From Kofleriaceae bacterium (GTDB lineage: Bacteria > Myxococcota_A > Polyangia > Haliangiales > Haliangiaceae): a stretch of 64,000 nucleotides of DNA. The stretch is from assembly GCA_048500355.1 (NCBI GenBank), contig JASNYD010000004.1:192001-256000 (forward strand), read 5' to 3'. This document shows, one piece after another, positions 21,966 through 51,365 of this stretch; the first letter of the stretch is position 1, and each line of letters begins with the position of its first letter. A program made the translations under genes and the position numbers. A model generated the notes under the pieces. The model did no database searches, had not been told where the DNA came from, and was given only the letters and a program-made list of their open reading frames with translations.

Positions 21966-22000
21966 TTGACACGGCACAACCGCTCGACTAGAAACCATGG
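21966..22000 (+). promoter_or_regulatory. Putative sigma70-type promoter of the tRNA-Val/tRNA-Asp operon.
   Basis: TTGACA at 21966-21971, a 17-nt spacer, then TAGAAA, about 20 nt upstream of the tRNA-Val 5' end. Confidence 0.4.
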
Positions 22001-28191: not shown

Positions 28192-29221
28192 CTAGAGAAC
28201 GGGAACGCTGCTCGAGCGACAAAGGCCATGGAACGGTGGGCCCTGCCCGACGAGATCGGCGAGGGCGCTGTCGTCGAGACGCGGCCGGAATTCCCCGACG
28301 TCGTCGCTCGTTCCCGTGCCTGAGCGCACGATCTGCGCGAGCTCGCGGCGGCCGCTCGCGTGCTCGACGAAGAGCACGCCGCCGTTCTGCCGCACCCACG
28401 GTGCCGCGCGCTTCACGTCGTCTGGATCAGAGAGCTGCTCGACTCGATCGAACCCGGCGATCGCCGATCGCACGGAGAACACCTTTCCGTGCATGAAACG
28501 GCAGATCAGCGTGGTCGCCTCGTCGAGCACGGCCTGGACGCGGTACCGCTCGATGCCGGCCTCGGCGTACGACGACATCTGCGCGAACGAGCGCGCGCGC
28601 CCGATGAACGCACCAGCGACGACCTCCCAGTAGAACCGCGACCGCCCGGTGAGCGTGGCCTCGGTCATGCCCGCGAGCTCAGTGGCGACATCGGCGCGAT
28701 CGCGTCCAGCCTCGAGCCCTGACGCCACAATCTGCCTGGCGCGTTGGCCGAGCTCGTCGAGCCGGCGGCCGTACGTGTCGGTCACGAACAGGGCGTGCGA
28801 GCGGGTCACGTGCCGCACGATGCGACGATCGAGCGCGTTCAGCTCGACGCCGATCGCGAGCCGATGGTGACGGCGCGAGACCGTGCGCGTCGCGCTCACG
28901 ACCTCGACGGCGGCATCGCCGAGCGGGGCGTCGAGCTTCGTGGGCACGACGCGAACATGGCGGCCGGCGACACGCATCGCCTCGTCCACGAGCCGTCGCC
29001 GCTCCGCGGCCGTCGTGCGCCTCCAGTCGACGTCGAGGACGGCTACGGCCTCACGCACCGCGCGTCCCTCGTCGCCGGCAGCGACGGCGCGGAGCCGCCC
29101 CGCAAGTGCGGCCACGGCCCGGTCGAAACCGGCGGCGGTCGAGAGGTCGAGGACCTTGGCGAGAGGCGCGCCGAGCACGTACGCAAGCAGCTCGTCGGCG
29201 GCGACGCGCCCGTCGAGGATG

Positions 29222-29238
<17 letters not shown>
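28192..29238 (-). CDS. Phage head morphogenesis protein (Mu gpF / SPP1 gp7-like).
   Basis: Lies immediately downstream of the portal gene. GGAGG RBS before an internal ATG (MTSPDDIL). The 5' end overlaps the portal 3' end. Family call by context and weak motif similarity. Confidence 0.45.
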
Positions 29239-30967
<1,729 letters not shown>

Positions 30968-30985
30968 CATCGACGCCATCTCCTC

Positions 30986-36683: not shown

Positions 36684-39384
36684 ATCCCACCGCCCCCGGC
36701 GCGAACCCGCGCGCGGCCTCGTCCTGGCGGACGCGCTCGACGACTCGTGCGAGCGTCTCGCCGTCGACATCGAGGCGGACATTCAGATCGAAGTCCCCCC
36801 CTGACCTCACGCGTGACGCCACCGCCGCGACGCGCGTCGCACCCTCCGAGGCCACGAGTTCGACGCCGCTGCGGGTCGGAACGGCGCCAGGCACGCCCGC
36901 CGGCGCCAGGACGCGCAAACCGCCTCCCGCATCCGCCTGGCTCAGCAGGTCTCCCACACCGCCAGTGAGCCCGCGCCACGCCCGGCCCGGCGCACCCTTC
37001 ACGGAGCGCCAGGCATTGTCGAGCGTGCCGCCGATCGAGCTGATCGCCCGCTCGATGGTGTTGACGATGTCGATGACGGCGTCGCGGATCTGGAGGAGGA
37101 AGCGGTAGACACCCTCGAAGACACTGGCGATCCCGTTGAGGAGGCCGCGGAAGGCGTTGGGCACGTCCTGCGTCAGGAAGCGCACGACCATCCCCACCCC
37201 GTCGATGATTCGACGCAGGTCGCGCGCGATGGCGGACGTCACCTCGTCGAAGACCCTGAGGATGGCTGTAAGCACCTTTGCGAGTCCCGCGGCGGCGAGC
37301 ACGACGGCCGTGAGCGCGCCACCGACGATCTTGCCAAGCACGAGCCCGAGCGTGCGGAACGCGCTGGTCGACGACTTCGTGTTCGCACGCAGACCGTCTG
37401 ACGCGCCGAAGAGGCCGAGGAACGTGTCGACCAGATCACCGAGCGCATCGCGCAGCGTCATGATCGCCGGGCCGACGTACGTCCACATCGCGGCGAAGCC
37501 GTCGAGGATGCCGCCGGTCATCCGCAGCGCGATCGTCGCCAGCTTGGTCACGATCGCGACCACCCCCGCCAGCGCCTGCCCCATCGCCTGCCCGAACGCG
37601 CGGAACTCGTCGGAGGGAAGGTTGGTCGAGCCGCCGACGATCGCGCGCACGAGGTGTGTGAACGCGCCCGCGAGCTCGCGGACAGCGCCGGCGAAACCGT
37701 CGAAGATCGGCCGCGCGGTCTCGAGCCCCGACCGGAACCCCTGCGCAACGCCACCCACGAGCGCTCGCACGCGGTGGACGAGCATGTAGATCGTCACGAG
37801 GAACTGCCGGATCCCGAGGTTCTCGGCCCTCCGCAGATCCTCCCGGAGCGGGCCCGAGAAACCACCGTCAGTGAAGAGCTGCCCGAGCCCACGTAGCGTC
37901 ATCGAGATCACCGCGCCGGCCCGCACGACGAAATCCCGGAAGCCGCCGAGGTTCTTCTCGTAGGCGCTCTTCAACCCCGCCAGCGCTAGCGCGAGCGCAC
38001 CGACGGCAAGGAGCACAGGTCCGAGCAAACCGCTGAGCCCGCCGAGCTGCACACCGAGCGCGCCGAGACCGATCCGTAGGAGACCGGACGCACTCCGCAC
38101 CGCCGCGAGCGTGCCGGCGAGCGCCCCGAGCCCGGCGACGGCAGCGACCACCACGGCGATTCCCTTCCGGACCGACGGCGGTAGATCGAGAAAGGCATGC
38201 GTGAGCGCGCGCGCCGCGGCGGCGAGCCGCGTGACGACCGGGGTGACGATCTCCAGGACCGGCTTCCCGACTGCCAGCGCCAGCGTCTTGAGCGAGCCGA
38301 CGAAGAGTGTCCACTGCCCGCGGAAGCCCCCGAGCAGCGTGTCGCGGAATCGGGCTGCCGTCCCGTCGGCCTCCTGAAACTGATCGCGCAGATACGCGAC
38401 AGCGTCGGCGCCTCGCACGACCTCACCGGACGCCGTGCGGATGCCCGAACGGAGCTGCTGAGAGACCGCGAGCACACCGCCGAGCGCCTCGGTGCCGAAG
38501 GCGCCGCGGAGGAACGCGGCTCGTCGCTGTTCGGTCATGCGCCCCAGCGCCGGCTCGAGGTCGACCAGGACATCGAGAAAGTCGCGGAAGCGGCCCTCGC
38601 TGTCGGTGACCGCGACGCCGACACCACGGAGCGCGCGCTGCGCCTTCGGCGTCGCCATCTCTCCCATCGCGACCGCGACCGCGGTCGAGGCCCGCTCCAC
38701 GCCCGGGATCACGTTCTTCACAAGCCCGAGCGTGATGAGCGTCTCCTCGAGCGACTGGTTTGCGCTCTGCGCGCCGCGGCTCGCCGTGCCGAGTGCGAGC
38801 GGGAGCTCGCGCGGAGCAAGCGCGAACAAGTTCACCGACTGCAAGAGCGTGTCGACCGCCCGGCTGGCGTCCTTCGCCTCGAGCCCGAACGCCTTGAGCG
38901 TCTGTGCCGCCAGCCCCGCCGCGTCCTGCGGCGTGAGCTCGCCCAAGGAGCTCGCCGCCAGGTCGAGGACCGGCACGAGCATCTCGAGCGCCTCGTTCGC
39001 CAGGTAGCCCGCCTGGCTGAGGTCGCGGATCCCGACCGCCGCCTCGGTCGCGGAGAACTGTGTCGATGCGCCCACGCGCAGCGCGGCGTCCTCGATCTGC
39101 CGCATCTCCTCGGCGGTCGCGCCCGAGACCGCCAGGATCTGCCGGAGCGCATCATCGAACGAGGCAGCATCACGCAGCGACGCGGCACCGCCGAGCGCGC
39201 CACCCACGCCGGCGGCAAGCCTTCCCAGCGAGTCGCCGACGCCGGTAAGTGCCTGGTCCATTCTCGCCGACGACCTGTCGACGCCGGTGCTGAGCCCGCG
39301 CAGCTTGGAGCCGACGCGCTCGAACACTCCCGACGCGAGGTCGCGCGCCGACAGCAGGAAGCCGAGCCCGAGGTTCAGTGCCAC
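36682..39384 (-). CDS. Phage tail tape measure protein.
   Basis: 900 aa Ala/Gly/Leu-rich helical protein with internal TM-like Gly-rich segments. GTG start with a GGAGG RBS. Lies immediately downstream of the chaperone frameshift ORF. Confidence 0.85.
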   Translation of the reverse strand: MALNLGLGFLLSARDLASGVFERVGSKLRGLSTGVDRSSARMDQALTGVGDSLGRLAAGVGGALGGAASLRDAASFDDALRQILAVSGATAEEMRQIEDAALRVGASTQFSATEAAVGIRDLSQAGYLANEALEMLVPVLDLAASSLGELTPQDAAGLAAQTLKAFGLEAKDASRAVDTLLQSVNLFALAPRELPLALGTASRGAQSANQSLEETLITLGLVKNVIPGVERASTAVAVAMGEMATPKAQRALRGVGVAVTDSEGRFRDFLDVLVDLEPALGRMTEQRRAAFLRGAFGTEALGGVLAVSQQLRSGIRTASGEVVRGADAVAYLRDQFQEADGTAARFRDTLLGGFRGQWTLFVGSLKTLALAVGKPVLEIVTPVVTRLAAAARALTHAFLDLPPSVRKGIAVVVAAVAGLGALAGTLAAVRSASGLLRIGLGALGVQLGGLSGLLGPVLLAVGALALALAGLKSAYEKNLGGFRDFVVRAGAVISMTLRGLGQLFTDGGFSGPLREDLRRAENLGIRQFLVTIYMLVHRVRALVGGVAQGFRSGLETARPIFDGFAGAVRELAGAFTHLVRAIVGGSTNLPSDEFRAFGQAMGQALAGVVAIVTKLATIALRMTGGILDGFAAMWTYVGPAIMTLRDALGDLVDTFLGLFGASDGLRANTKSSTSAFRTLGLVLGKIVGGALTAVVLAAAGLAKVLTAILRVFDEVTSAIARDLRRIIDGVGMVVRFLTQDVPNAFRGLLNGIASVFEGVYRFLLQIRDAVIDIVNTIERAISSIGGTLDNAWRSVKGAPGRAWRGLTGGVGDLLSQADAGGGLRVLAPAGVPGAVPTRSGVELVASEGATRVAAVASRVRSGGDFDLNVRLDVDGETLARVVERVRQDEAARGFAPGAVG

Positions 39385-39402
39385 GGTGTGCCTCCGAGGG
39401 GC

Positions 39403-40277
39403 TCACCCGACCGGCGTGCGGCGGAGGGCCTGGGCCTCGCGCTGGCGCTGCGTCGCCACGCGCTCGAGCAGCCAGTCGCGAAACGCGATCGACAGCTCGA
39501 GCACGCTCGGCAGATCGAGACCGAGCCCCGACCCTCCGTGCGTGCGCCACGCCAGTCCAAACACCGCTTCACGCCACGCCTCCTCGTCTACCGCCGGGAA
39601 GATCCCGCCGACCGCCTGCCCGTCGGCAGGAGGAACGTTCCCTGGAAAGGGAGGTCCACCGCCTGCACCGCCTGGCAGGACGGGCACTGGATGTCGATCG
39701 ACGTCTCGATGCCGCCGTCGACACGCTCGACCTCCGCGAGGAGCGCCTTCACGTCGCCCAGCGCCAGGTCCTCGAGGAACGCACGCCGGTCCTTCTCGGC
39801 GACGCCCTCGACCTCGACCACACGATGCGCGAGCGACGCCGAGAGCACCTTGTCCCGGTTGGCCTGGCGGAGCTGCGGGAGCGTCCGCTCGTCGTTCCCG
39901 ACGAGCAACCGGAACCACACAGCGCGGCCGGCGTCGGGCAGGTGCGTACGGAAGCGGTTGCCGCGGAGGAAGGTGCTGCGGCTCTCCACCGACAGCTCGC
40001 GCACCGGCAGCTGATCGAGCTCGAGCTCCCACTCGATCCGCTCGCCGCAGCGCTCGCACGGCAGATCGAACGCGTACGTCGGGCCATACGTCGCGAGGCG
40101 GATGTGGACCAGCGCGACGAAGCGATCGGCGATCAGCACCTTGCCCCAGTCCGGCTTCCCTTCGAAGCCGTACGGGCCCGGGTCGAGCGTCTCCTCCCAG
40201 CACGCGGCAAGGAGCGCGTCGATCTGTCCGCCGCTCTTGGCGAGCTGCCGGTCGGTGAGGATCTGCTCCTCCTTCAC
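39403..40277 (-). CDS. Tail assembly chaperone -1 frameshift fusion product (GT-like).
   Basis: The overlapping ORF in the -1 frame (track 39403..40500) is open over the chaperone 3' end and stops 19 nt before the TMP start. A slippery heptamer C_CCT_TTC lies at 39645-39651. The -1 extension encodes a non-Arg-rich 80-aa tail (GQAVGGIFPAVDEEAWREAVFGLAW...). Confidence 0.45.
39588..40277 (-). CDS. Tail assembly chaperone (G-like), with two CxxC pairs.
   Basis: GTG start. 229 aa containing CERCGER...CPSCQAV. The position upstream of the TMP is canonical for a chaperone. Confidence 0.5.
   Translation of the reverse strand: MKEEQILTDRQLAKSGGQIDALLAACWEETLDPGPYGFEGKPDWGKVLIADRFVALVHIRLATYGPTYAFDLPCERCGERIEWELELDQLPVRELSVESRSTFLRGNRFRTHLPDAGRAVWFRLLVGNDERTLPQLRQANRDKVLSASLAHRVVEVEGVAEKDRRAFLEDLALGDVKALLAEVERVDGGIETSIDIQCPSCQAVQAVDLPFQGTFLLPTGRRSAGSSRR
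39645..39651 (-). other. Candidate -1 programmed ribosomal frameshift site (CCCTTTC) with downstream hairpins.
   Basis: The heptamer X_XXY_YYZ (C_CCU_UUC) is in the zero frame of the chaperone. GGAACGTTCC and CCTGCCgacgGGCAGG inverted repeats lie 3-15 nt downstream. Confidence 0.45.
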
Positions 40278-40330
40278 CCGGAGCCCGCGGACGCGACCCG
40301 CCAGCCCTGACGGACACGTGACGAGCGCGC

Positions 40331-41137
40331 TCACGCGTGGCCTCCGCTCGTGAGCACAGCCGGATCCAGGCCAGCCCGCTCGTAGACGTCGACGAGGAGC
40401 GTGCGCCACAAGGGGCCCGCATCCTCCTTCCGCCTGTCGAAGTCGCCGTGCAGGAAGCCGCAGCGGGTGGGCGAGAGCGCGTACCGCTCGGCGAGCGCAT
40501 GCAGCACGAACCCTGCCGCCAGGACCTGCGCCTCGGGGAAGCCGTCGAACGCGCCCTTGCCCCGGGCGAGCTGCATGCGCTCGGGCTCGACGGCGAGCTT
40601 CTTGTCGGCGACGCGGTTGAGCTCGTCCTCCACGTACCCGCCCTGCGAGTTCTGCTTCCAGTACGGATGGCAGAGCCAGTAGCCGTCGAGGTACTTGAGG
40701 CGGCCAGCGTTCTCGAGCTCGATGCCGACGAGGCTCCGGTTCACGCGGTGCGCGTGCCCCCGATCGTCCCGAACGGTCCCGACAGCGCAGTGCCAGCTCC
40801 CGATCTCGAACGGAACGGACTGGTAGACCCATCCCTGCTTCGAGATGACGACGTGCCACGACGCCGCTCGGTCCTTCTTTGGATCGTACGTGCTGATCTT
40901 CTGCGCCAGCCGCGCCGCGTAGCCCCGCCGACACACGCCGCCGGTCCAGTGCCAGCACACGCCGATCGGCGCGGGCTCACCGCTTGGCGCCTGGCTGGTC
41001 AGGCGCGATCGGCGCGGGCTGGGCAGGCGCACCACATTGGGCCCCTCGAGCCAGCCGTCCTCGCTCACCGTCATCGTCTCCGCCAGCGCGGGCGGTGCGT
41101 GCACCGCCGCGACCTTCTCCTTCACTCGCTCGAACAT
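40331..41137 (-). CDS. Endolysin: N-acetylmuramoyl-L-alanine amidase (Amidase_2 / PGRP family).
   Basis: VCWHWTGGV, AASWHVVISKQGWVYQSVP, SWHCAVG and GIELENAG motifs. GGAGGTG RBS. An alternative upstream start is at 41200. Confidence 0.8.
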   Translation of the reverse strand: MFERVKEKVAAVHAPPALAETMTVSEDGWLEGPNVVRLPSPRRSRLTSQAPSGEPAPIGVCWHWTGGVCRRGYAARLAQKISTYDPKKDRAASWHVVISKQGWVYQSVPFEIGSWHCAVGTVRDDRGHAHRVNRSLVGIELENAGRLKYLDGYWLCHPYWKQNSQGGYVEDELNRVADKKLAVEPERMQLARGKGAFDGFPEAQVLAAGFVLHALAERYALSPTRCGFLHGDFDRRKEDAGPLWRTLLVDVYERAGLDPAVLTSGGHA

Positions 41138-41322
41138 CACCACCTCCACCGCAGCCCGCCGAGGGCTGTCACGAATGTCTCTGTCTCTCCATCGCTCCAT
41201 GCGACTCCGGCCCGCGCCGTCGCAAAGCCCGACAGGCGCTCACTGATCCGTCGCTGCGCGTCGAGCGCCGCCGCCAGGTATCCATCGCCATCGCCGCCGC
41301 GGGCCGAGAGGCCGAGATCGAG
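41137..41322 (-). CDS. Small ORF between the membrane protein and the endolysin (possible lysis accessory or spanin-like protein).
   Basis: 62-aa ORF from a GTG. Its TGA overlaps the endolysin ATG (ATGA). Very weak call. Confidence 0.2.
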   Translation of the reverse strand, partial: LDLGLSARGGDGDGYLAAALDAQRRISERLSGFATARAGVAWSDGETETFVTALGGLRWRW

Positions 41323-41405: not shown

Positions 41406-41885
41406 CTAGGAAGGGTTTCGCGTGAGCGGCTTCGCCGGCAGCGCGACCGTCCCGGGCGCGACACCGTTCTTCAGCGCGCCGCTCGCCTTCAGACTCGCGA
41501 GCGCCACCTCGGTCTTGCTCTCGATCCAGGCATCCACCTTCTCCGGCACCTCCCCGAAGACGCTCGAGAAGCCGAGCACCTTGGCGAGTCGCTTGAGCCC
41601 CTTCACGCCGATGTTCGACCGGGCGATCGCCACGGCGCGCCGCTTGGCCTCGAGCTTCTCGGCCTCGGTGAGGAGGCCGTCGACGCGCGCCCGCTTGAGC
41701 TCGCTCGTATACGTCTGCCACGTCTCCATCACCGCATCCGCGATCTCGTTCCAGGCCCGCTGCAGGATCTCCCGCGCGGTCTTGTGAGCGATCGTGCTCC
41801 ACACGTACTTGGTCAAGAGCATCGCCATGAGCCCCAGCGCCCACGGCACCACCTTCTCCGCATTCGTTGCCACGAACTCCAGCAT
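41406..41885 (-). CDS. Membrane-anchored phage protein (holin or spanin candidate).
   Basis: N-terminal TM helix VPWALGLMAMLLTKYVW followed by a charged helical region. GGAGG RBS. Lies adjacent to the endolysin. Confidence 0.4.
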   Translation of the reverse strand: MLEFVATNAEKVVPWALGLMAMLLTKYVWSTIAHKTAREILQRAWNEIADAVMETWQTYTSELKRARVDGLLTEAEKLEAKRRAVAIARSNIGVKGLKRLAKVLGFSSVFGEVPEKVDAWIESKTEVALASLKASGALKNGVAPGTVALPAKPLTRNPS

Positions 41886-41961
41886 CCCCATCCTCCTTCA
41901 CACAGTCGTTGTCGTGTCACCGCGCGACCGGACCATCCGGTGTGCGGAATCCCGTCGAGCG

Positions 41962-42432
41962 TCAGCCAGCCAGCGGCGACAGCTCGAAATAGTCGTACGT
42001 CAACGTGACCTGCTCGATGAGCACCTCGTCGGCGGCGTTGTCCCAGTCGCCGGCGACGAACTTCGTCGGCCACGCGTTATAGATGGACCAGCGACGGATC
42101 GTCAGGCCGTCACGGTCGAGCTGCACCAGGTCGAGCGACCGCTTGTACGCGTGATCTGTGATTCCCAGACCCGATGCGAGCTGCACGACCTCCGCGAACC
42201 AGTCGTACAGCGCGCGGTCGGTCGTCGCGCCGCGCTCGAGCGTCAGATCGCTGAACGTGAGCCGCCCCGGCACCTTGGTCGGGATGACCGATCCACCTTC
42301 CCAGTGCTCGATCTTGGCGGCCTCGACCGAGAGCTCCGACGCCTTGGCGAAGCCAACGCGACCGAGGTGTTCCACTTCAAGAATGAATGAATGCTTGCGA
42401 AAGAACGAGCGAGGGTTCCCGAAGATCGGCAT
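41962..42432 (-). CDS. Phage tail tube protein (T4 gp19 / TIGR02241-like).
   Basis: 156 aa, immediately downstream of the sheath. Motifs [17 protein letters not shown] and DYFEL are typical of conserved phage-tail-region tube proteins. Confidence 0.7.
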
Positions 42433-42433
42433 C

Positions 42434-44629
42434 TCACGCCTCCGCGTTGGCGAGCTCGGCGTCGAGCGCGCGCAGGTCCTGTGACAGCTCGACGATCACG
42501 AACTCGGCGGGCTTCGCGGTCGCGAGCCCGACGCGCAGCCGGAGCTGGCCATCGAGCACGCTCGACGGCGGGTTGAGCGCATCCGATACGTCGACGAAGA
42601 ACGCGGTGCGCGGATCGCGCGTCGCGAACGCGCCGATGTTCATCTGCGAGAGCAGGAACTGGAACACCGCGCGGTACACCTCGGCGCGCAGCTCTGGCGT
42701 GTTGCTCCGGTGCCGCACACGGTCGAGCCCGAGCGCGAGGCTACGCGCGATGTAGATGACGCCGCGCCGCTCGGGCACCGACGGGAAGTTGCCGGTCGCC
42801 TTGAGCGTGCGAGCGCCGTCGATGTACCGCCCGCGGATCGGGTTCACGCGGTGCGGAAACACCAGGTCGCGCGCGTTCTCGTCGAGCACCTCGTCCATCT
42901 CGGCACCGAGCACGCCGGCCAGGCGGCCGATGTCCACACCCGCCGGCGCCTCGTAGACGCCGCCCGGCCGCGCGCCATCGGTGCGCGCGTAGACCCCGGC
43001 GATGTGTCCCGAGGGCGGCACGATCAGATCCTCGGCGGGACCGAGCGCTCGCGGGCTGGGGTTGGTCACCCGAACGCGAGGCCAGTACACCGCGCCGAAC
43101 TCCGACCGCCCCTCGATCCCACCGACGCCGGCCACGTACGCGACGACGTCGTCGGCCGTCAGCGCGGGAGCCACGTCGAGGATCGCGAACACACGCCCGC
43201 GGCGCACCTCCTCGCAGTAAGTGAGGAGTCCCTCGTGCGCAACCGCCGAGCTGCGCCCGGGTATTGCAACGATCGACAGTTCGTCCACGGCGTCGAGCGC
43301 GCGCAGCCCCGAGCGCGCCACGGGCGAGCCGAGGAAGTCGAGGTCGCCGAGCCCGGCAAGGCCGTCGCCCCCCTGCGCCAGCTCGACGCTCTGCGCGTCC
43401 GGCCGCGGTCGACCTGACAGCGCGAGGTCATCGACCTGGATGAGACGCGATCCGGTGCGAGCGTGGTTGACGATGGTCGGCGCGTAGCGAGCCGTGGCCG
43501 GATCCATCGTGAGCGCGAGGTACGACTCGCGCATCCGCGCCCCCTCGGTGACAAGGAGGTCGAAGGTTGCCCCGACGCCCGGTCGCACCGTGATCGTGAG
43601 CCGGTTGGCGTAGATTCCCGGATCGCGCCCTCGAGCGCGCAGCACCACCGAGCTCACGCCTGCGCTCCCCACGTGCGCGAGCAGATCCAGCCCGAGCGCC
43701 GGGGTCGTTCCGCCCTGAACCTGCAGGCGCGCTTGCGGACCCGTCGAGAGCCCGCGCAGGACCAGTGCACCCTGCGCATTAGCCTCCGCGCGGACACCCG
43801 CGCCGAGCGCGCCGAGGAGCGCGTCGATCTCGACGATCGTCACCGCGGCGAGCCGATCGACCGAGCCCGCGCCGTGTGCGATGTCGCTCCCGAACGAGAG
43901 CGCGGCCGTCGCCGTCCCACCCACGATCTGGAGCTGGCTCGCCCGGCCGGCCGACGCTGTCGCGAGCTCCACGGCACCGCCCGCGGCCACCGCGGCAACG
44001 GCGCCCGCCAGCGCGGCGTTCATGACCGCCGCCACCTCGGCGGCCGTCGCCTGCGTGATCGCAGCGAAGTCCTGCGCCCGGCACGTGACCGTGGCCGGCG
44101 CGTTGCCGTCGATCGCGACCTCGAGAGTCATTCCGTCGGCGAGGAGGAACGGCTCGCCTCCCGAGGTCACGAGCCGTGCTGGTGTCCCCGTGAACGTCAC
44201 GACGAGGGGCGCGGCGCCGTCGACTGCGATGCTGAGGAGCTCACCGTCGGCCACGGCGAACGGGGCGACCGCGCCGGTGACGATCGCAGGCTGTGGCGCC
44301 ACCGCGGAGACGAGCGCGGCGCTCGCGGCGACGGCGGTCATGCTGCCGGCGTCGTCCGGGTCTTGGTAGTGCGCGGTGCGCACCACGTGGAGGACGCGCC
44401 CACCGTTCTGGAAGAAGCCGAGGACGGCGTGAGGAAGGTCGGCGCCCGGCACGAACCCGCCGAACACGCGCGCATACTCCTCCCAGTTCCCGACACGGAC
44501 GGCCGTTCCGATGGGGCCGCGCTCCGCGATGCCGACCAGGCCGACGACCGCCGTCGCCGCGGACGTGACGATCCGGACCGGCGGGTCCTCCTCGCGAATG
44601 ATGACCTTCGATGCTCCGAGCTCAGCCAC
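42434..44629 (-). CDS. Phage tail sheath protein.
   Basis: 731 aa. N-terminal GVFIxE-like region ([25 protein letters not shown]) and C-terminal sheath domain ([19 protein letters not shown]...GVIYIARSL). Confidence 0.85.
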
Positions 44630-47745: not shown

Positions 47746-48690
<945 letters not shown>

Positions 48691-48715: not shown

Positions 48716-49498
48716 CTACTTGTCCCCGTGGAACGAGAGCGACTTGTCGACCGACGCGCGGTCCATCGGCGCGTTCAGGTCGAGCGGCCAGCTCACGTCA
48801 TCCTCGTCACCAGGGTCGCCGCCGGCTCCGCCACCCTCGGGTGTGCGCGACGCCGGCAGGCCCACGTTCTTCTCGACCTTGCCGATGCGGTCGCCCTGTT
48901 CTTTGAGCTGCGTCTCGAGCTTCGAGATCGAGCCGGCGATGCCGTCGAGCTTGGCCATCACCGGGTCCGCGCCACCGGGCGCCGCGTCCCGCTTCTGCGC
49001 CGGCGCGGTGACCGCTGTCTGAAGCCGCGCGAGCGCCGCCTTGACCTGGTTGAGGAGCGCCGTGACCGACTCGGCCGCCTTGCGACGGCGCTCGGCCTCC
49101 GCCTTCTCGTCCTCGTCCTCGTCGTCGTCCTCCTCTCCGCCTTCCTCGTCGTCGTCGTCGGCGCCTCCGCCACCACCGCCGCCCTTCGGCTTCTTCGGCG
49201 GCGGAAACGCCTTCTCCGCCGCGTCGATCGTGACCAGCTCGGCCAGCGCGGTGACCGCCTCGGTCAGCGCGGCCATCGCCTCGGTCCCGCCCGTCGCGGC
49301 TCCGCCGCCGCTCCCACCATCGCCCGGCGCGTCGTCCGGCGCCGGCGTTCCTTCGTCCGCCATCTTCTGTCTCCTCTTCACGATCAGGAAGCGGCGCTGG
49401 TTCGCCGCCCGATCGACGAGGCTGACTTCCTCGACGATCATGTCCACCAGCCGATGCACGCCGTCGGCGCGCTCGGAGTCATCGTTGTCGCCGGCCAT
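48716..49498 (-). CDS. Putative capsid scaffolding protein.
   Basis: AAGGAG RBS before ATG ([13 protein letters not shown]). Conserved N-terminus ([22 protein letters not shown]), acidic Gly/Asp/Glu-rich linkers and coiled-coil segments. Lies between the protease-domain gene and the MCP. Confidence 0.45.
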
Positions 49499-50823
49499 CA
49501 CGCCGCTCCTTCGCCGCCCGGCTCGGGCACACGCCGTGCCGAGCCGCCGATCGAGAAGCCGGTAAAGTCGCCGGACTTGACCTTCGCCCACAGCGCATCC
49601 GACAGGACGTGGACGCCGAGCAGCCAGGTGCCCTTCTTCACCACCTCCTCGCCGATTCGCAGGTCGTCGAGCGCGAGATAGCTCTCCACGATCTTCACCT
49701 GCCCGTTCACCGGCACCTGGTGCATGAGGCCCAGGCCGCGGAACTCCTCCAGGAACCGGTGCGCGACCTTGCGCACCTCCTCCGCCGAGTAGATGTCCTC
49801 CTGCGCGTCGACCGTCTCCGGCTCGAGCACGACCCCCAGCACGAACCGCTGCTCGCCGCGCTCCTCCGCCTTGAGGACCCGTCCGGTGATGCGGAACTCG
49901 TCCTCGACTTGGCCGTCCCAGTCATCGATCTGCACCTCGTCGGTGCTGAGCCCCGCAAGCGCCTTGGCCGTCGGCTCATAGTTCGAAGCCAAGATCTGGG
50001 TGAGCACGCTCGAGCCGCCCACGCCGCGCATCGAGCGGATCGTCCGCGGCGTGCGGATGCGCTTGACCGTGAAGCCCGCCTCGACGAGGGCCTTGGGCAG
50101 CGTGCCGCGAATCCCGTACGTCATGAGCCACTTGCCCTTCAGGTCCTTCAGCACCTTGAGGAAGCGGGCCTCGTCGAACTTCTTCTCGCCGACGTTCGCG
50201 TCGTACCCGGCGTACGGCGGGTCGAGGAAGAACACCGTGCTCTTGCCGTCGTACTTCCGCACGACCTTCTCGTAGTCGCCGTCGTAGACCTTCACCTTGC
50301 GCAACCGCGGCGCGTGCTGCGCCACGCGGTCCACGGTCGACGCCTCGACGCCCTGCGCCACCGGCGAGAAGCTCCGTCCGCGCAGCTTCCCGTACGAGAA
50401 GTGCGTGACGTAGAGGAACTTGTAGAGCCAGTCCACGTCGCTCGACGGCTCGGCATCGTAGAGCTTGAGAAAGGTCGACTTGTCGCCCTTCCAGCTCCGC
50501 GACCGCAGCTTGCCGAGGAACGCGTCGTCGGACCGCTGGATGAGTCGGTACGCCTTCGCGATGTCGGCATCGAAGTCGTTGATCGCCTCCACGGCTGCTG
50601 GCTCCTTCGCGAACAGCACTGCGGCGCTCCCCGCGAAGGGCTCGACGTAGGTCGTGTGCGTCGGCAGGAGCCCGGCGAGCCGCTTGGCGATGCGTCGCTT
50701 GCCGGCGGGCGAGCTCCAGATGGTCTTCTCGACCTCCTCGCGCGCTCCGAGCGTGAGCGCCGTCAGCCGCTCGATCGCCGTCCGAACGCGGGCCAGCGCT
50801 TCGGCCGATCCGACCGTCGTCAT
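49498..50823 (-). CDS. DNA N6-adenine methyltransferase (Dam, D12 class) fused to a C-terminal XkdF-like prohead-protease domain.
   Basis: Dam motifs YVEPFAGSAAV...INDFDADIAKAYRLI and FFLDPPYAGY. The C-terminal 170 aa match the XkdF pattern (VLEPETVDAQEDIYSAEEVRKVAHRF...IVESYLA...GTWLLGVHVLSDALWAKVKSGDFTGFSIGG). Strong GGGAGG RBS. The long N-terminal extension of track ORF 49498..51147 is judged spurious. Confidence 0.7.
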   Translation of the reverse strand: MTTVGSAEALARVRTAIERLTALTLGAREEVEKTIWSSPAGKRRIAKRLAGLLPTHTTYVEPFAGSAAVLFAKEPAAVEAINDFDADIAKAYRLIQRSDDAFLGKLRSRSWKGDKSTFLKLYDAEPSSDVDWLYKFLYVTHFSYGKLRGRSFSPVAQGVEASTVDRVAQHAPRLRKVKVYDGDYEKVVRKYDGKSTVFFLDPPYAGYDANVGEKKFDEARFLKVLKDLKGKWLMTYGIRGTLPKALVEAGFTVKRIRTPRTIRSMRGVGGSSVLTQILASNYEPTAKALAGLSTDEVQIDDWDGQVEDEFRITGRVLKAEERGEQRFVLGVVLEPETVDAQEDIYSAEEVRKVAHRFLEEFRGLGLMHQVPVNGQVKIVESYLALDDLRIGEEVVKKGTWLLGVHVLSDALWAKVKSGDFTGFSIGGSARRVPEPGGEGAA

Positions 50824-51365
50824 GGCCGACCTCCCGCCACGCGCGCAACCCTGAGCGCGCGCACCCTCGCGCGCCCAGAAGCCGCTCGCGCTGTGCGGTG
50901 TCGCTCGTCGGGACGGCCGCCCTCGAGCGCGCCACGACCACGCAGCCAGGAGATCACCCGGCGCTGGGTCTGCACCTTGAGCCACGCTGGCGACACCCGA
51001 CGCCGCGGACGGAGCCGACACACGACGTCGAGAAACGCCACGACGACCAGGCTGTTTCCGTCGTCTTGGGACATCGCCTCCGATTCGAAGCGGCGGGCGA
51101 TGCGCTCGAGCCACGTGCGGCACGCGATGACCAGCGCCGCCGACCACGCCGGAGCCGGCGAGCGTTGGGCCTGACGGGTCAGCGCACCGACCAGGAGCTC
51201 GAGCCGCGCGTGAGAAGCGTCATGCAGCACCCGCGCAAGCGCTGGCCCAGTGCCCATCGCACGAAGGACGTGCTCCTTGGACGCGGCGATGTCGACGCCG
51301 TGCCAGGCGCTCGGTCGCGCCAGCCAGGCGGCCAGCCGTTCGATCAGCTCCTGGAATGAGCTCAC
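50820..51365 (-). CDS. Hypothetical phage protein.
   Basis: 181 aa. Its stop overlaps the Dam start (ATGA). Confidence 0.35.
   Translation of the reverse strand: MSSFQELIERLAAWLARPSAWHGVDIAASKEHVLRAMGTGPALARVLHDASHARLELLVGALTRQAQRSPAPAWSAALVIACRTWLERIARRFESEAMSQDDGNSLVVVAFLDVVCRLRPRRRVSPAWLKVQTQRRVISWLRGRGALEGGRPDERHRTARAASGRARVRALRVARVAGGRP

Follow-up and report, generated by a model that had tools for sequence, protein, structure and literature searches.

The 64,000-nt stretch analysed here, referred to as the window (contig JASNYD010000004.1 of a Kofleriaceae bacterium, positions 192,001 to 256,000), harbors a prophage with a contractile tail, whose putative tail assembly chaperone gene is very probably subject to a programmed -1 ribosomal frameshift of the lambda G/GT type, as judged from sequence comparison. 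In this myovirus-like prophage of a Kofleriaceae-type myxobacterium, two overlapping coding frames are joined only at an invariant slippery heptamer of the X_XXY_YYZ type, C_CCT_TTC, which is situated at a domain boundary and directly 5' of the tape measure gene. Due to the fact that the -1 frame is always open from the heptamer onwards, that the slip codons are invariant, and that the downstream frame has no conserved start codon, programmed -1 frameshifting is the best reading of this arrangement. Mechanism and gene position are textbook; new are the protein family concerned (gp26/PF12322), the invariance of CCCUUUC over more than 100 loci, and the absence of the long form from phage-context database entries. 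All coordinates given below are positions in the window, in which the chaperone gene and the tail genes are encoded on the minus strand.

Slip site, reading frames, and their conservation in relatives

In the minus-strand reading, the codons CTC (39653-51), CCT (39650-48), and TTC (39647-45) place C_CCT_TTC (39651..39645) in the zero frame of the open reading frame (ORF) that stops at TAG 39590..39588, in agreement with the original prediction, which was made from the sequence of the window. The -1-frame ORF crossing the slip site comprises 365 codons (39403..40500). As stated there, it remains open up to a stop in front of the GTG of the tape measure gene and adds 80 residues counted from the slip (approximately 80 had been given), but the distance between this stop, TGA 39405..39403, and the tape-measure GTG 39384 is 18 nt instead of 19 nt. 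A start of the chaperone ORF at position 40277, in contrast, was not confirmed. Due to the overlap of GTG 40334 with the TGA of the upstream amidase gene, the GGAGG preceding this GTG, and the conserved N-terminus of the homologues, which start with MSALVTCPSGL... and show conserved residues already before position 20, GTG 40334 is regarded as the true start. Chance would supply an in-frame X_XXY_YYZ roughly once in 256 codons, and the chaperone gene contains three. The heptamer is thus not significant by itself, and its significance derives from the comparative data.

The -1 region downstream of the heptamer is protein-coding. The guanine-plus-cytosine (GC) content at third codon positions (GC3) is 0.93 in frame 0 until the heptamer and switches over approximately 60 nt to frame -1 (0.87-0.97). 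With values of 0.80/0.53/0.87 for codon positions 1, 2, and 3 (GC1/2/3) in the -1 frame, the extension resembles the tape measure gene, and its residues 23-78 match phrog_20255 (E = 1e-18). A perfect GAGGAGG is located at 39579..39585 on the minus strand, behind the zero-frame stop and 6 nt in front of the GTG start of a third-frame ORF of 65 aa (39375..39572). The GC3 of this third frame (approximately 0.5) is of the non-coding kind, and the GAGGAGG run most likely simply encodes D-E-E of the extension.

For the comparison, a scan at one genome per species yielded 80 loci with protein identities of 53-91% from Myxococcus, Corallococcus, Archangium, Polyangiaceae, Kofleriaceae, and other Myxococcota, and IMG/VR contributed 43 further loci, reaching 38% identity and 51% GC. 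The combined set comprises 110 distinct loci (38-91% protein identity, 51-72% GC) drawn from isolates, metagenome-assembled genomes (MAGs), and viral contigs; the nearest relatives of the window locus are Kofleriaceae MAGs. A homologue of the extension was detected by tblastn in the -1 frame of all 77 genome loci with a complete 3' end and of all 110 distinct loci. Without exception, these 110 loci show no -1-frame stop between the heptamer and the end of the extension, and this applies also to the loci with a GC content of 51-54% (L116-L121), in which chance alone would not be expected to leave approximately 100 codons open. The heptamer, for which a search in homologous prophages had been proposed, is invariant in 81 out of 81 loci, and within the combined set CCCTTTC was found in 109 and CCCTTTT in one of the 110 loci; the CCCTTTT variant is carried by L117/L118. 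In the more distant locus L127, Leu is replaced by Ile, but since this residue is encoded by ATC (ATC CCT TTC), the heptamer survives. All slip-site variants, CCCTTTT as well as ATC for CTC, keep the X_XXY_YYZ pattern.

Among 80 distinct genes, Leu, Pro, and Phe of the slip site are encoded by one codon each (CTC, CCT, and TTC), and all of the 37 other invariant columns of degenerate amino acids show two to five synonymous codons each. CCT is a minor Pro codon, accounting for 9.8% of the Pro codons elsewhere in these genes. The positional entropy is zero over the nine nucleotides CTCCCTTTC, with 1.3-1.4 bits at the wobble positions of the flanking codons.

A -1-frame stop is situated 4 nt 5' of the heptamer in six loci, and the zero-frame stop follows 37-151 nt 3' of the heptamer across the relatives. 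Purifying selection on the -1 frame, as reflected by the wobble pattern, starts approximately 62 nt after the heptamer at the LFP motif, about five codons before the zero-frame stop. The linker from the heptamer to this motif comprises 13-33 codons, and its length changes by whole codons only. The wobble pattern of the zero frame is kept in relatives for approximately 55 nt after the heptamer, which is explained by the C-terminal aromatic motif of the family in the zero-frame tail. A -1 ORF without conservation or codon-usage signal in related elements had been named as the observation that would speak against frameshifting. The opposite was found, namely a conserved -1 frame with the GC1/2/3 composition of coding sequence. 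Together with the match to phrog_20255 and its occurrence in 110 out of 110 loci, this coding signal supports the G/GT-type arrangement originally proposed.

Mechanism and alternative explanations

Most ribosomes would read the 248-codon gene up to the TAG and produce the short form, consisting of the gp26-like fold and a short disordered tail. Some ribosomes would pause when CCU is occupied by tRNA-Pro and UUC by tRNA-Phe. According to the standard model, both tRNAs would then slip simultaneously, from CCU to CCC and from UUC to UUU, each re-pairing well, and reading would continue with CCA GGG AAC... in the -1 frame up to TGA 39405..39403. The resulting long form of 310 aa would combine the gp26-like domain with a flexible linker and a conserved helical domain of approximately 60 aa carrying HGGSGL. 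Since the slip occurs at the end of the fold and the zero-frame tail has a motif of its own, frameshifting would swap this tail for linker and extension. If lambda G/GT and P2 E/E+E' are taken as models, the domain common to both forms may coat the tape measure protein encoded by the next gene, the extension may dock the complex to the tube or the baseplate initiator, and neither form would end up in the virion.

Regarding stimulatory elements, the 18 nt upstream of the slip site often read CAGGAGGTGGAG in relatives; upstream of the heptamer in the window lies CAGGCGGTGGAC. The predicted pairing of these 18 nt with the anti-Shine-Dalgarno sequence amounts to a mean of -8.3 kcal/mol over 109 loci versus -3.5 kcal/mol for control windows of the same genes (window -7.1 kcal/mol; medians -11.0 versus -3.0 kcal/mol), and values of -8 kcal/mol or lower occur in 52% of the loci versus 8.8% of the control windows. 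Due to the fact that the same nucleotides encode a conserved Q-E-V-E, the Shine-Dalgarno-like stretch remains a lead only. If a stimulator exists, this upstream stretch is a likelier candidate than an RNA structure 3' of the site. In lambda G/GT, too, the shift requires little in addition to the heptamer. A search of Rfam gave no relevant match.

The observations that weigh against frameshifting concern RNA structure, the database record of the long form, and the start codons of the extension. The two small inverted repeats behind the slip site, to which the original prediction had drawn attention, do exist (GGAACGTTCC at 39641..39632 and CCTGCC-GACG-GGCAGG at 39630..39615), but they are not conserved in relatives and do not behave like a stimulator, the 80 nt after the heptamer being no more stable than shuffled sequences (folding z = -0.36). 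Application of RNAalifold to 63 aligned sequences resulted in 0 consensus pairs, and the mean folding z over 90 relatives is -0.01 versus -0.17 for control segments. A hand-picked hairpin formed by CUUCUUCC and GGAAGGAG was rejected as too weak, with 77% paired versus 47-69% in slid controls and covariation at the closing pair only. In phage context, the long form is annotated nowhere among 322 homologue matches and the 85 representatives of the extension domain obtained with HMMER from a library of 1.84 billion proteins. One natural in-frame fusion, P0162 (393 aa), consists of the gp26-like region through ...CPDCLARQRVRLPF, a short linker, and GLFPKLDLHAWRESLFQLCW...DRDWLLDRV, and a single BLASTP segment spans the junction when it is aligned with the predicted fusion of the window (49% identity, E = 7e-22). 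Due to its internal deletion and its location among non-phage genes (peptidase M19, phosphoesterase), this fusion is supportive only, and P0162 may represent a domesticated or decaying remnant of a frameshift product. It originates from a 24.6-kb contig of ENA sample ERZ1426829 and carries approximately 185 unrelated residues besides the gp26-like and extension domains.

With respect to start codons, a GTG is present between the LFP motif and a conserved Trp in 64 out of 110 relatives, often overlapping the zero-frame TGA as GTGA, and in those relatives a separately initiated product of approximately 63 aa is possible. Furthermore, Bacillus phage vB_BceM-HSE3 encodes a probable homologue of the extension separately, with its own ATG and in another frame. 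It could thus be argued that the small downstream ORF is an independent gene, translated without any frameshift by re-initiation or coupling near the chaperone stop, with GTGA as the start site in many relatives and, in the window, GTG 39564 or a non-canonical ATC, and that the heptamer is conserved for some other reason. We regard this as improbable. Indeed, 61 of the 110 relatives have a start codon at position +4 relative to the LFP motif, in the main group as a GTG overlapping the zero-frame TGA, and it is this overlap in the largest subgroup that makes gene callers and phrog_20255 (a 63-aa profile) treat the extension as a small gene of its own. In the window, GAGGAGG lies 14 nt 5' of GTG 39564. 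However, the sequence of the window across the zero-frame TAG is GCG GTA GAC, and no start overlaps the stop; GTA in place of GTG and TAG as stop are shared with its closest relatives. Its first canonical start is located 29 codons past the slip, within the conserved segment, and initiation there would delete IFPAVDEEAWREA. At or before the conserved domain and its LFP motif, a canonical start occurs in just 2 of the 110 loci, none of them being the window, and in 44 loci a usable start ahead of the conserved core is missing, either because the first start lies inside the core (41) or because there is none (3). L006 and L116 are devoid of any canonical start, the latter having no ATG, GTG, or TTG in 98 codons. 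Moreover, constraint on the -1 frame begins 5' of the GTG, and an independent gene leaves unexplained both the nucleotide invariance of CTC-CCT-TTC and the open -1 frame behind the heptamer in all 110 loci, the low-GC ones included.

The annotation of the extension is correspondingly ragged. Database calls for the window-type ORF amount to 66 aa (with an ATC start), 53, 54, and 49 aa, and in the 1.84-billion-protein library the extension domain begins at position 1 to 53 within ORFs of 34-107 aa. Exact-sequence look-ups of P0121 and P0128 returned no record. Since the start of the extension is not conserved, independent initiation cannot, as far as these sequences tell, be the conserved route, and in the window it cannot take place without truncating the domain. 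In some relatives, it may add some free extension protein.

Still less probable is an explanation in which the nine invariant nucleotides act as an RNA or regulatory element, e.g., an anti-Shine-Dalgarno-like CCUCCCUUUC pairing with purine-rich neighbours, and the extension is reached otherwise, e.g., by non-canonical initiation. The sequence GACCTCCCTTTC resembles the 3' end of 16S rRNA, purine-rich stretches occur 5' and 3' of the heptamer (e.g., GGGAAGGAG in relatives), and NCBI annotated an ATC start for P0121. Against this stand the lack of a consensus structure with the heptamer and of excess folding stability in the sequences analysed, the variation of the partner sequences next to a constant heptamer, and the fact that the CCCTTTT and ATC-for-CTC variants preserve X_XXY_YYZ. 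As to a chance heptamer combined with a spurious open -1 frame, or a single gene split by a frameshift mutation or an assembly error, long spurious ORFs are common at 70-75% GC, the -1 ORF has just such a length, and three heptamers of this type are present in the gene. This possibility is nevertheless negligible, because the arrangement recurs in more than 110 independent loci including relatives with 51-54% GC, the -1 region shows the codon-position signature of coding sequence and matches a PHROG, and the zero-frame tail past the heptamer is itself conserved, which is not compatible with a broken single gene. Transcriptional slippage was rejected since the homopolymer runs are just 3 nt long, and stop-codon readthrough since the extension lies outside the zero frame.

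The gp26-like short form and its prophage setting

The short form matches the Pfam family PF12322 (T4_baseplate) with 36.1 bits against a cut-off of 24.5 (E = 7e-9, residues 57-226) and phrog_150, annotated as baseplate hub (E = 1e-14). Homologues were found in 322 cases with lengths of 247-272 aa, and all 120 among the matches listed carry PF12322. In an AlphaFold2 (AF2) model of the short form, with a predicted local distance difference test score (pLDDT) of 88.5 and a predicted template modelling score of 0.85, the protein is folded up to about residue 227 (last strand 223-227), followed by a disordered tail. The slip site Leu228-Pro229-Phe230 is thus situated exactly at the end of the modelled fold. 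This model matches 63 viral models of BFVD at E <= 1e-3, the best of which are annotated as "baseplate hub (assembly) protein, T4-like" with TM scores of 0.7-0.75. Among solved structures, the sequence search found none, and Foldseek against PDB gave nothing significant, the best matches being tail assembly chaperones. Behind the slip site, the zero-frame tail keeps the family motif F(F/L)(L/M)P (window ...LPF..F(L/F)LP). In the AF2 model of the long form, the pLDDT of the extension is below 60 and three helices are predicted with low confidence; due to this low score the long-form model was used for secondary structure only. In cultured phages, no close relative of the chaperone was found, but only 20-26% identical proteins of jumbo phages or Bacillus/Listeria phages, and tblastn with the extension gave nothing.

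The two CxxC pairs noticed in the original prediction are real and conserved. C93, C96, and C220 are invariant in homologues, C217 is invariant in one alignment and present in at least 90% in another, and the four Cys residues probably form a zinc ribbon. Their description as unusual holds for classical chaperone families only, because the protein belongs to the T4 gp26/PF12322 family, for which such pairs are typical, T4 gp26 having CxC and CPEC.

Table 1. Features of the frameshift locus and of the adjacent prophage genes (positions in the window)
Feature	Position	Strand	Remarks
Slippery heptamer C_CCT_TTC (X_XXY_YYZ)	39645..39651	-	Codons of Leu228 (3rd base)-Pro229-Phe230
Zero-frame short-form gene	39588..40334	-	GTG 40334 to TAG 39590..39588; 248 aa, 27.5 kDa; T4 gp26-like (PF12322) putative tail assembly chaperone
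-1 frame after slip	39403..39651	-	CCC TTT CCA ... to TGA 39405..39403; +80 residues; predicted long form of 310 aa, 34.2 kDa
Overlap/linker	39588..39644	-	Zero frame: C-terminal tail QGTFLLPTGRRSAGSSRR, then stop; -1 frame: variable linker
Conserved extension domain, ~66 aa	39406..39603	-	IFPAV..WRE..F.L.W..HGGSGL..RDWLLER..QR.REA
First Cys pair, C93-x-x-C96	40047..40058	-	
Second Cys pair, C217-x-x-C220	39675..39686	-	Eight codons 5' of slip site
Candidate Shine-Dalgarno-like stimulator, 18 nt 5' of slip site	39654..39671	-	Weak in the window (GCGGTGCAGGCGGTGGAC)
Tape measure gene, 900 aa	36682..39384	-	PF10145, E = 3.6e-30; many tape-measure PHROGs; GGAGG before start
Amidase_2 (N-acetylmuramoyl-L-alanine amidase)	40331..41200	-	Between tube and chaperone
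161-aa ORF	41406..41891	-	Weak holin match, phrog_13712, E = 4e-5
Tail tube	41962..42432	-	Upstream of chaperone
Tail sheath	42434..44629	-	phrog_23 among sheath families
Major capsid gene	47746..48690	-	Head-tail adaptor gene also present on minus strand

The GC content of the window drops near 22000 from about 0.75-0.76 to about 0.66-0.69 and stays lower up to the window end, which probably marks one boundary of the prophage or island. The prophage corresponds to the part with lower GC content. Its tail is contractile, as deduced from its tube and sheath genes (PF06841, E = 8e-29; sheath families phrog_15814, phrog_17610, and phrog_23). On the minus strand, the gene order is sheath, tube, 161-aa ORF, amidase, chaperone, and tape measure (Table 1), and genes for a gpD-like hub and a gpV-like spike are present on this strand as well. 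The lysis-type genes, i.e., the amidase gene and the 161-aa ORF, lie within the tail module; in the relative L127, the tube gene is located directly 5' of the chaperone gene.

The ORF at 49498..51147 (minus strand) encodes a single protein of 549 aa that combines a D12-class N6-adenine DNA methyltransferase (PF02086, residues 149-336) with an XkdF-like prohead serine protease (PF14550, residues 428-539) and also matches phrog_13242 (E = 5e-185). Genes for a portal protein (PF04860) and a Mu-F-like protein are found at 28192..30979 (minus strand); in the direction of transcription, they follow the baseplate genes. Capsid, protease, and adaptor genes precede the tail genes, and the head genes are thus split around the tail module. 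Possible reasons for this split are an unusual gene order, a permuted integration, or the presence of two elements next to each other.

Significance and comparison with known systems

Hundreds of myxobacterial prophage loci in Myxococcus, Corallococcus, Archangium, Polyangiaceae, and Kofleriaceae carry this gene pair, and the long form was never called. The extension is presently annotated as small ORFs with arbitrary starts, which one rule would mend, i.e., joining both frames at C_CCT_TTC with a -1 shift. The locus offers a clean natural slippery sequence, invariant down to approximately 38% protein identity and without detectable downstream RNA structure. In addition, it ties the T4 gp26 family, labelled as baseplate hub, to the position and possibly the fold of tail assembly chaperones and thereby suggests a testable function for a vaguely understood T4 protein. 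A literature search found no paper linking gp26/PF12322 to frameshifting or to tape-measure chaperoning, and a search for CCCUUUC gave no report of frameshifting among the matches listed, which were unrelated.

A frameshift conserved in tail genes was described by Xu, Hendrix & Duda 2004 (Mol Cell 16:11), as cited in PMC9024508. The window shares with lambda gpG/gpGT a gene immediately 5' of the tape measure gene, a -1 slip at X_XXY_YYZ near the 3' end of the chaperone gene, a long form comprising the whole chaperone plus an additional C-terminal domain, a downstream ORF without a conserved start, and a gene order that is more conserved than the sequence. The heptamer is G_GGA_AAG in lambda and C_CCU_UUC in the window. 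Unlike the lambda G-like family, the window protein has approximately 250 aa, four conserved Cys residues, and PF12322, and unlike lambda the window phage has a contractile tail, with two lysis-type genes between tube and chaperone. Phage P2, whose tail is contractile, has the chaperone pair gpE and gpE+E' between tube and tape measure, produced by -1 frameshifting as well. Compared with P2 E/E+E', no sequence relationship was detected, the slippery sequence is another one, and the P2 proteins are much smaller.

In case of the E. coli dnaX gene, common features are the -1 slip on X_XXY_YYZ and, in relatives of the window locus, the enrichment of a Shine-Dalgarno-like stretch 5' of the site. 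In contrast to dnaX, no downstream hairpin was detectable, and, in the window, the Shine-Dalgarno-like stretch is weak as well as confounded by its coding function. Between Shine-Dalgarno sequence and slip site, there are approximately 10 nt in dnaX versus approximately 7 nt here.

T4 gp26 is listed as "baseplate hub assembly chaperone" of undefined mechanism, its role being known only genetically (PMC3004832, Table 2; also PMC9024508). The short form shares with it a PF12322 match above the gathering score, a fold matching predicted gp26-like viral proteins, the Cys pairs (in T4, CxC as CTC, and CPEC), and a C-terminal aromatic motif, the T4 protein ending with ...CPECGKTHAHVIRGLKEFFELL. T4 gp26 is shorter (208 aa), and its gene is neither adjacent to the tape measure gene 29 nor provided with a -1 extension. 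A second product of T4 gene 26 (26'; L126, 7803..8429) results from an internal in-frame start and not from frameshifting.

Bacillus phages SP-15 and vB_BceM-HSE3 share the order sheath, tube, gp26-like "baseplate hub", small ORF, and tape measure. Their gp26-like proteins match phrog_150, the protein identity to the window protein amounts to 23-24%, and CCCTTTC is absent; the HSE3 protein ends with ..EFFRPKFR, compared to ..EFFELL of T4 gp26. The small ORFs between the gp26-like and tape measure genes (L081 6674..6844 of HSE3 and L082 6749..6868 of SP-15) are annotated as hypothetical. They differ from the extension in being separate genes with their own ATG in the +1 frame, following after a gap of 22-79 nt. 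The 56-aa ORF of HSE3 aligns with the extension profile (hhalign 86.6%, E = 4.5e-6), which suggests that the small ORFs of the Bacillus phages are chaperone partners. The module of gp26-like protein and extension looks old, with the expression route of the small domain differing by lineage. Thus it is tempting to speculate, at slightly less than even confidence, that the T4 gp26 family (PF12322) represents the contractile-tail counterpart of lambda gpG, with a gpG-like core and a four-Cys zinc ribbon, working together with a small helical "T-like" domain (HGGSGL). In myxobacterial prophages, this domain would come from a -1 frameshift at C_CCU_UUC that does not depend on RNA structure, and in some Bacillus phages it would be encoded separately. 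In that case, T4 gp26 would act as the chaperone that brings the tape measure protein gp29 into the hub.

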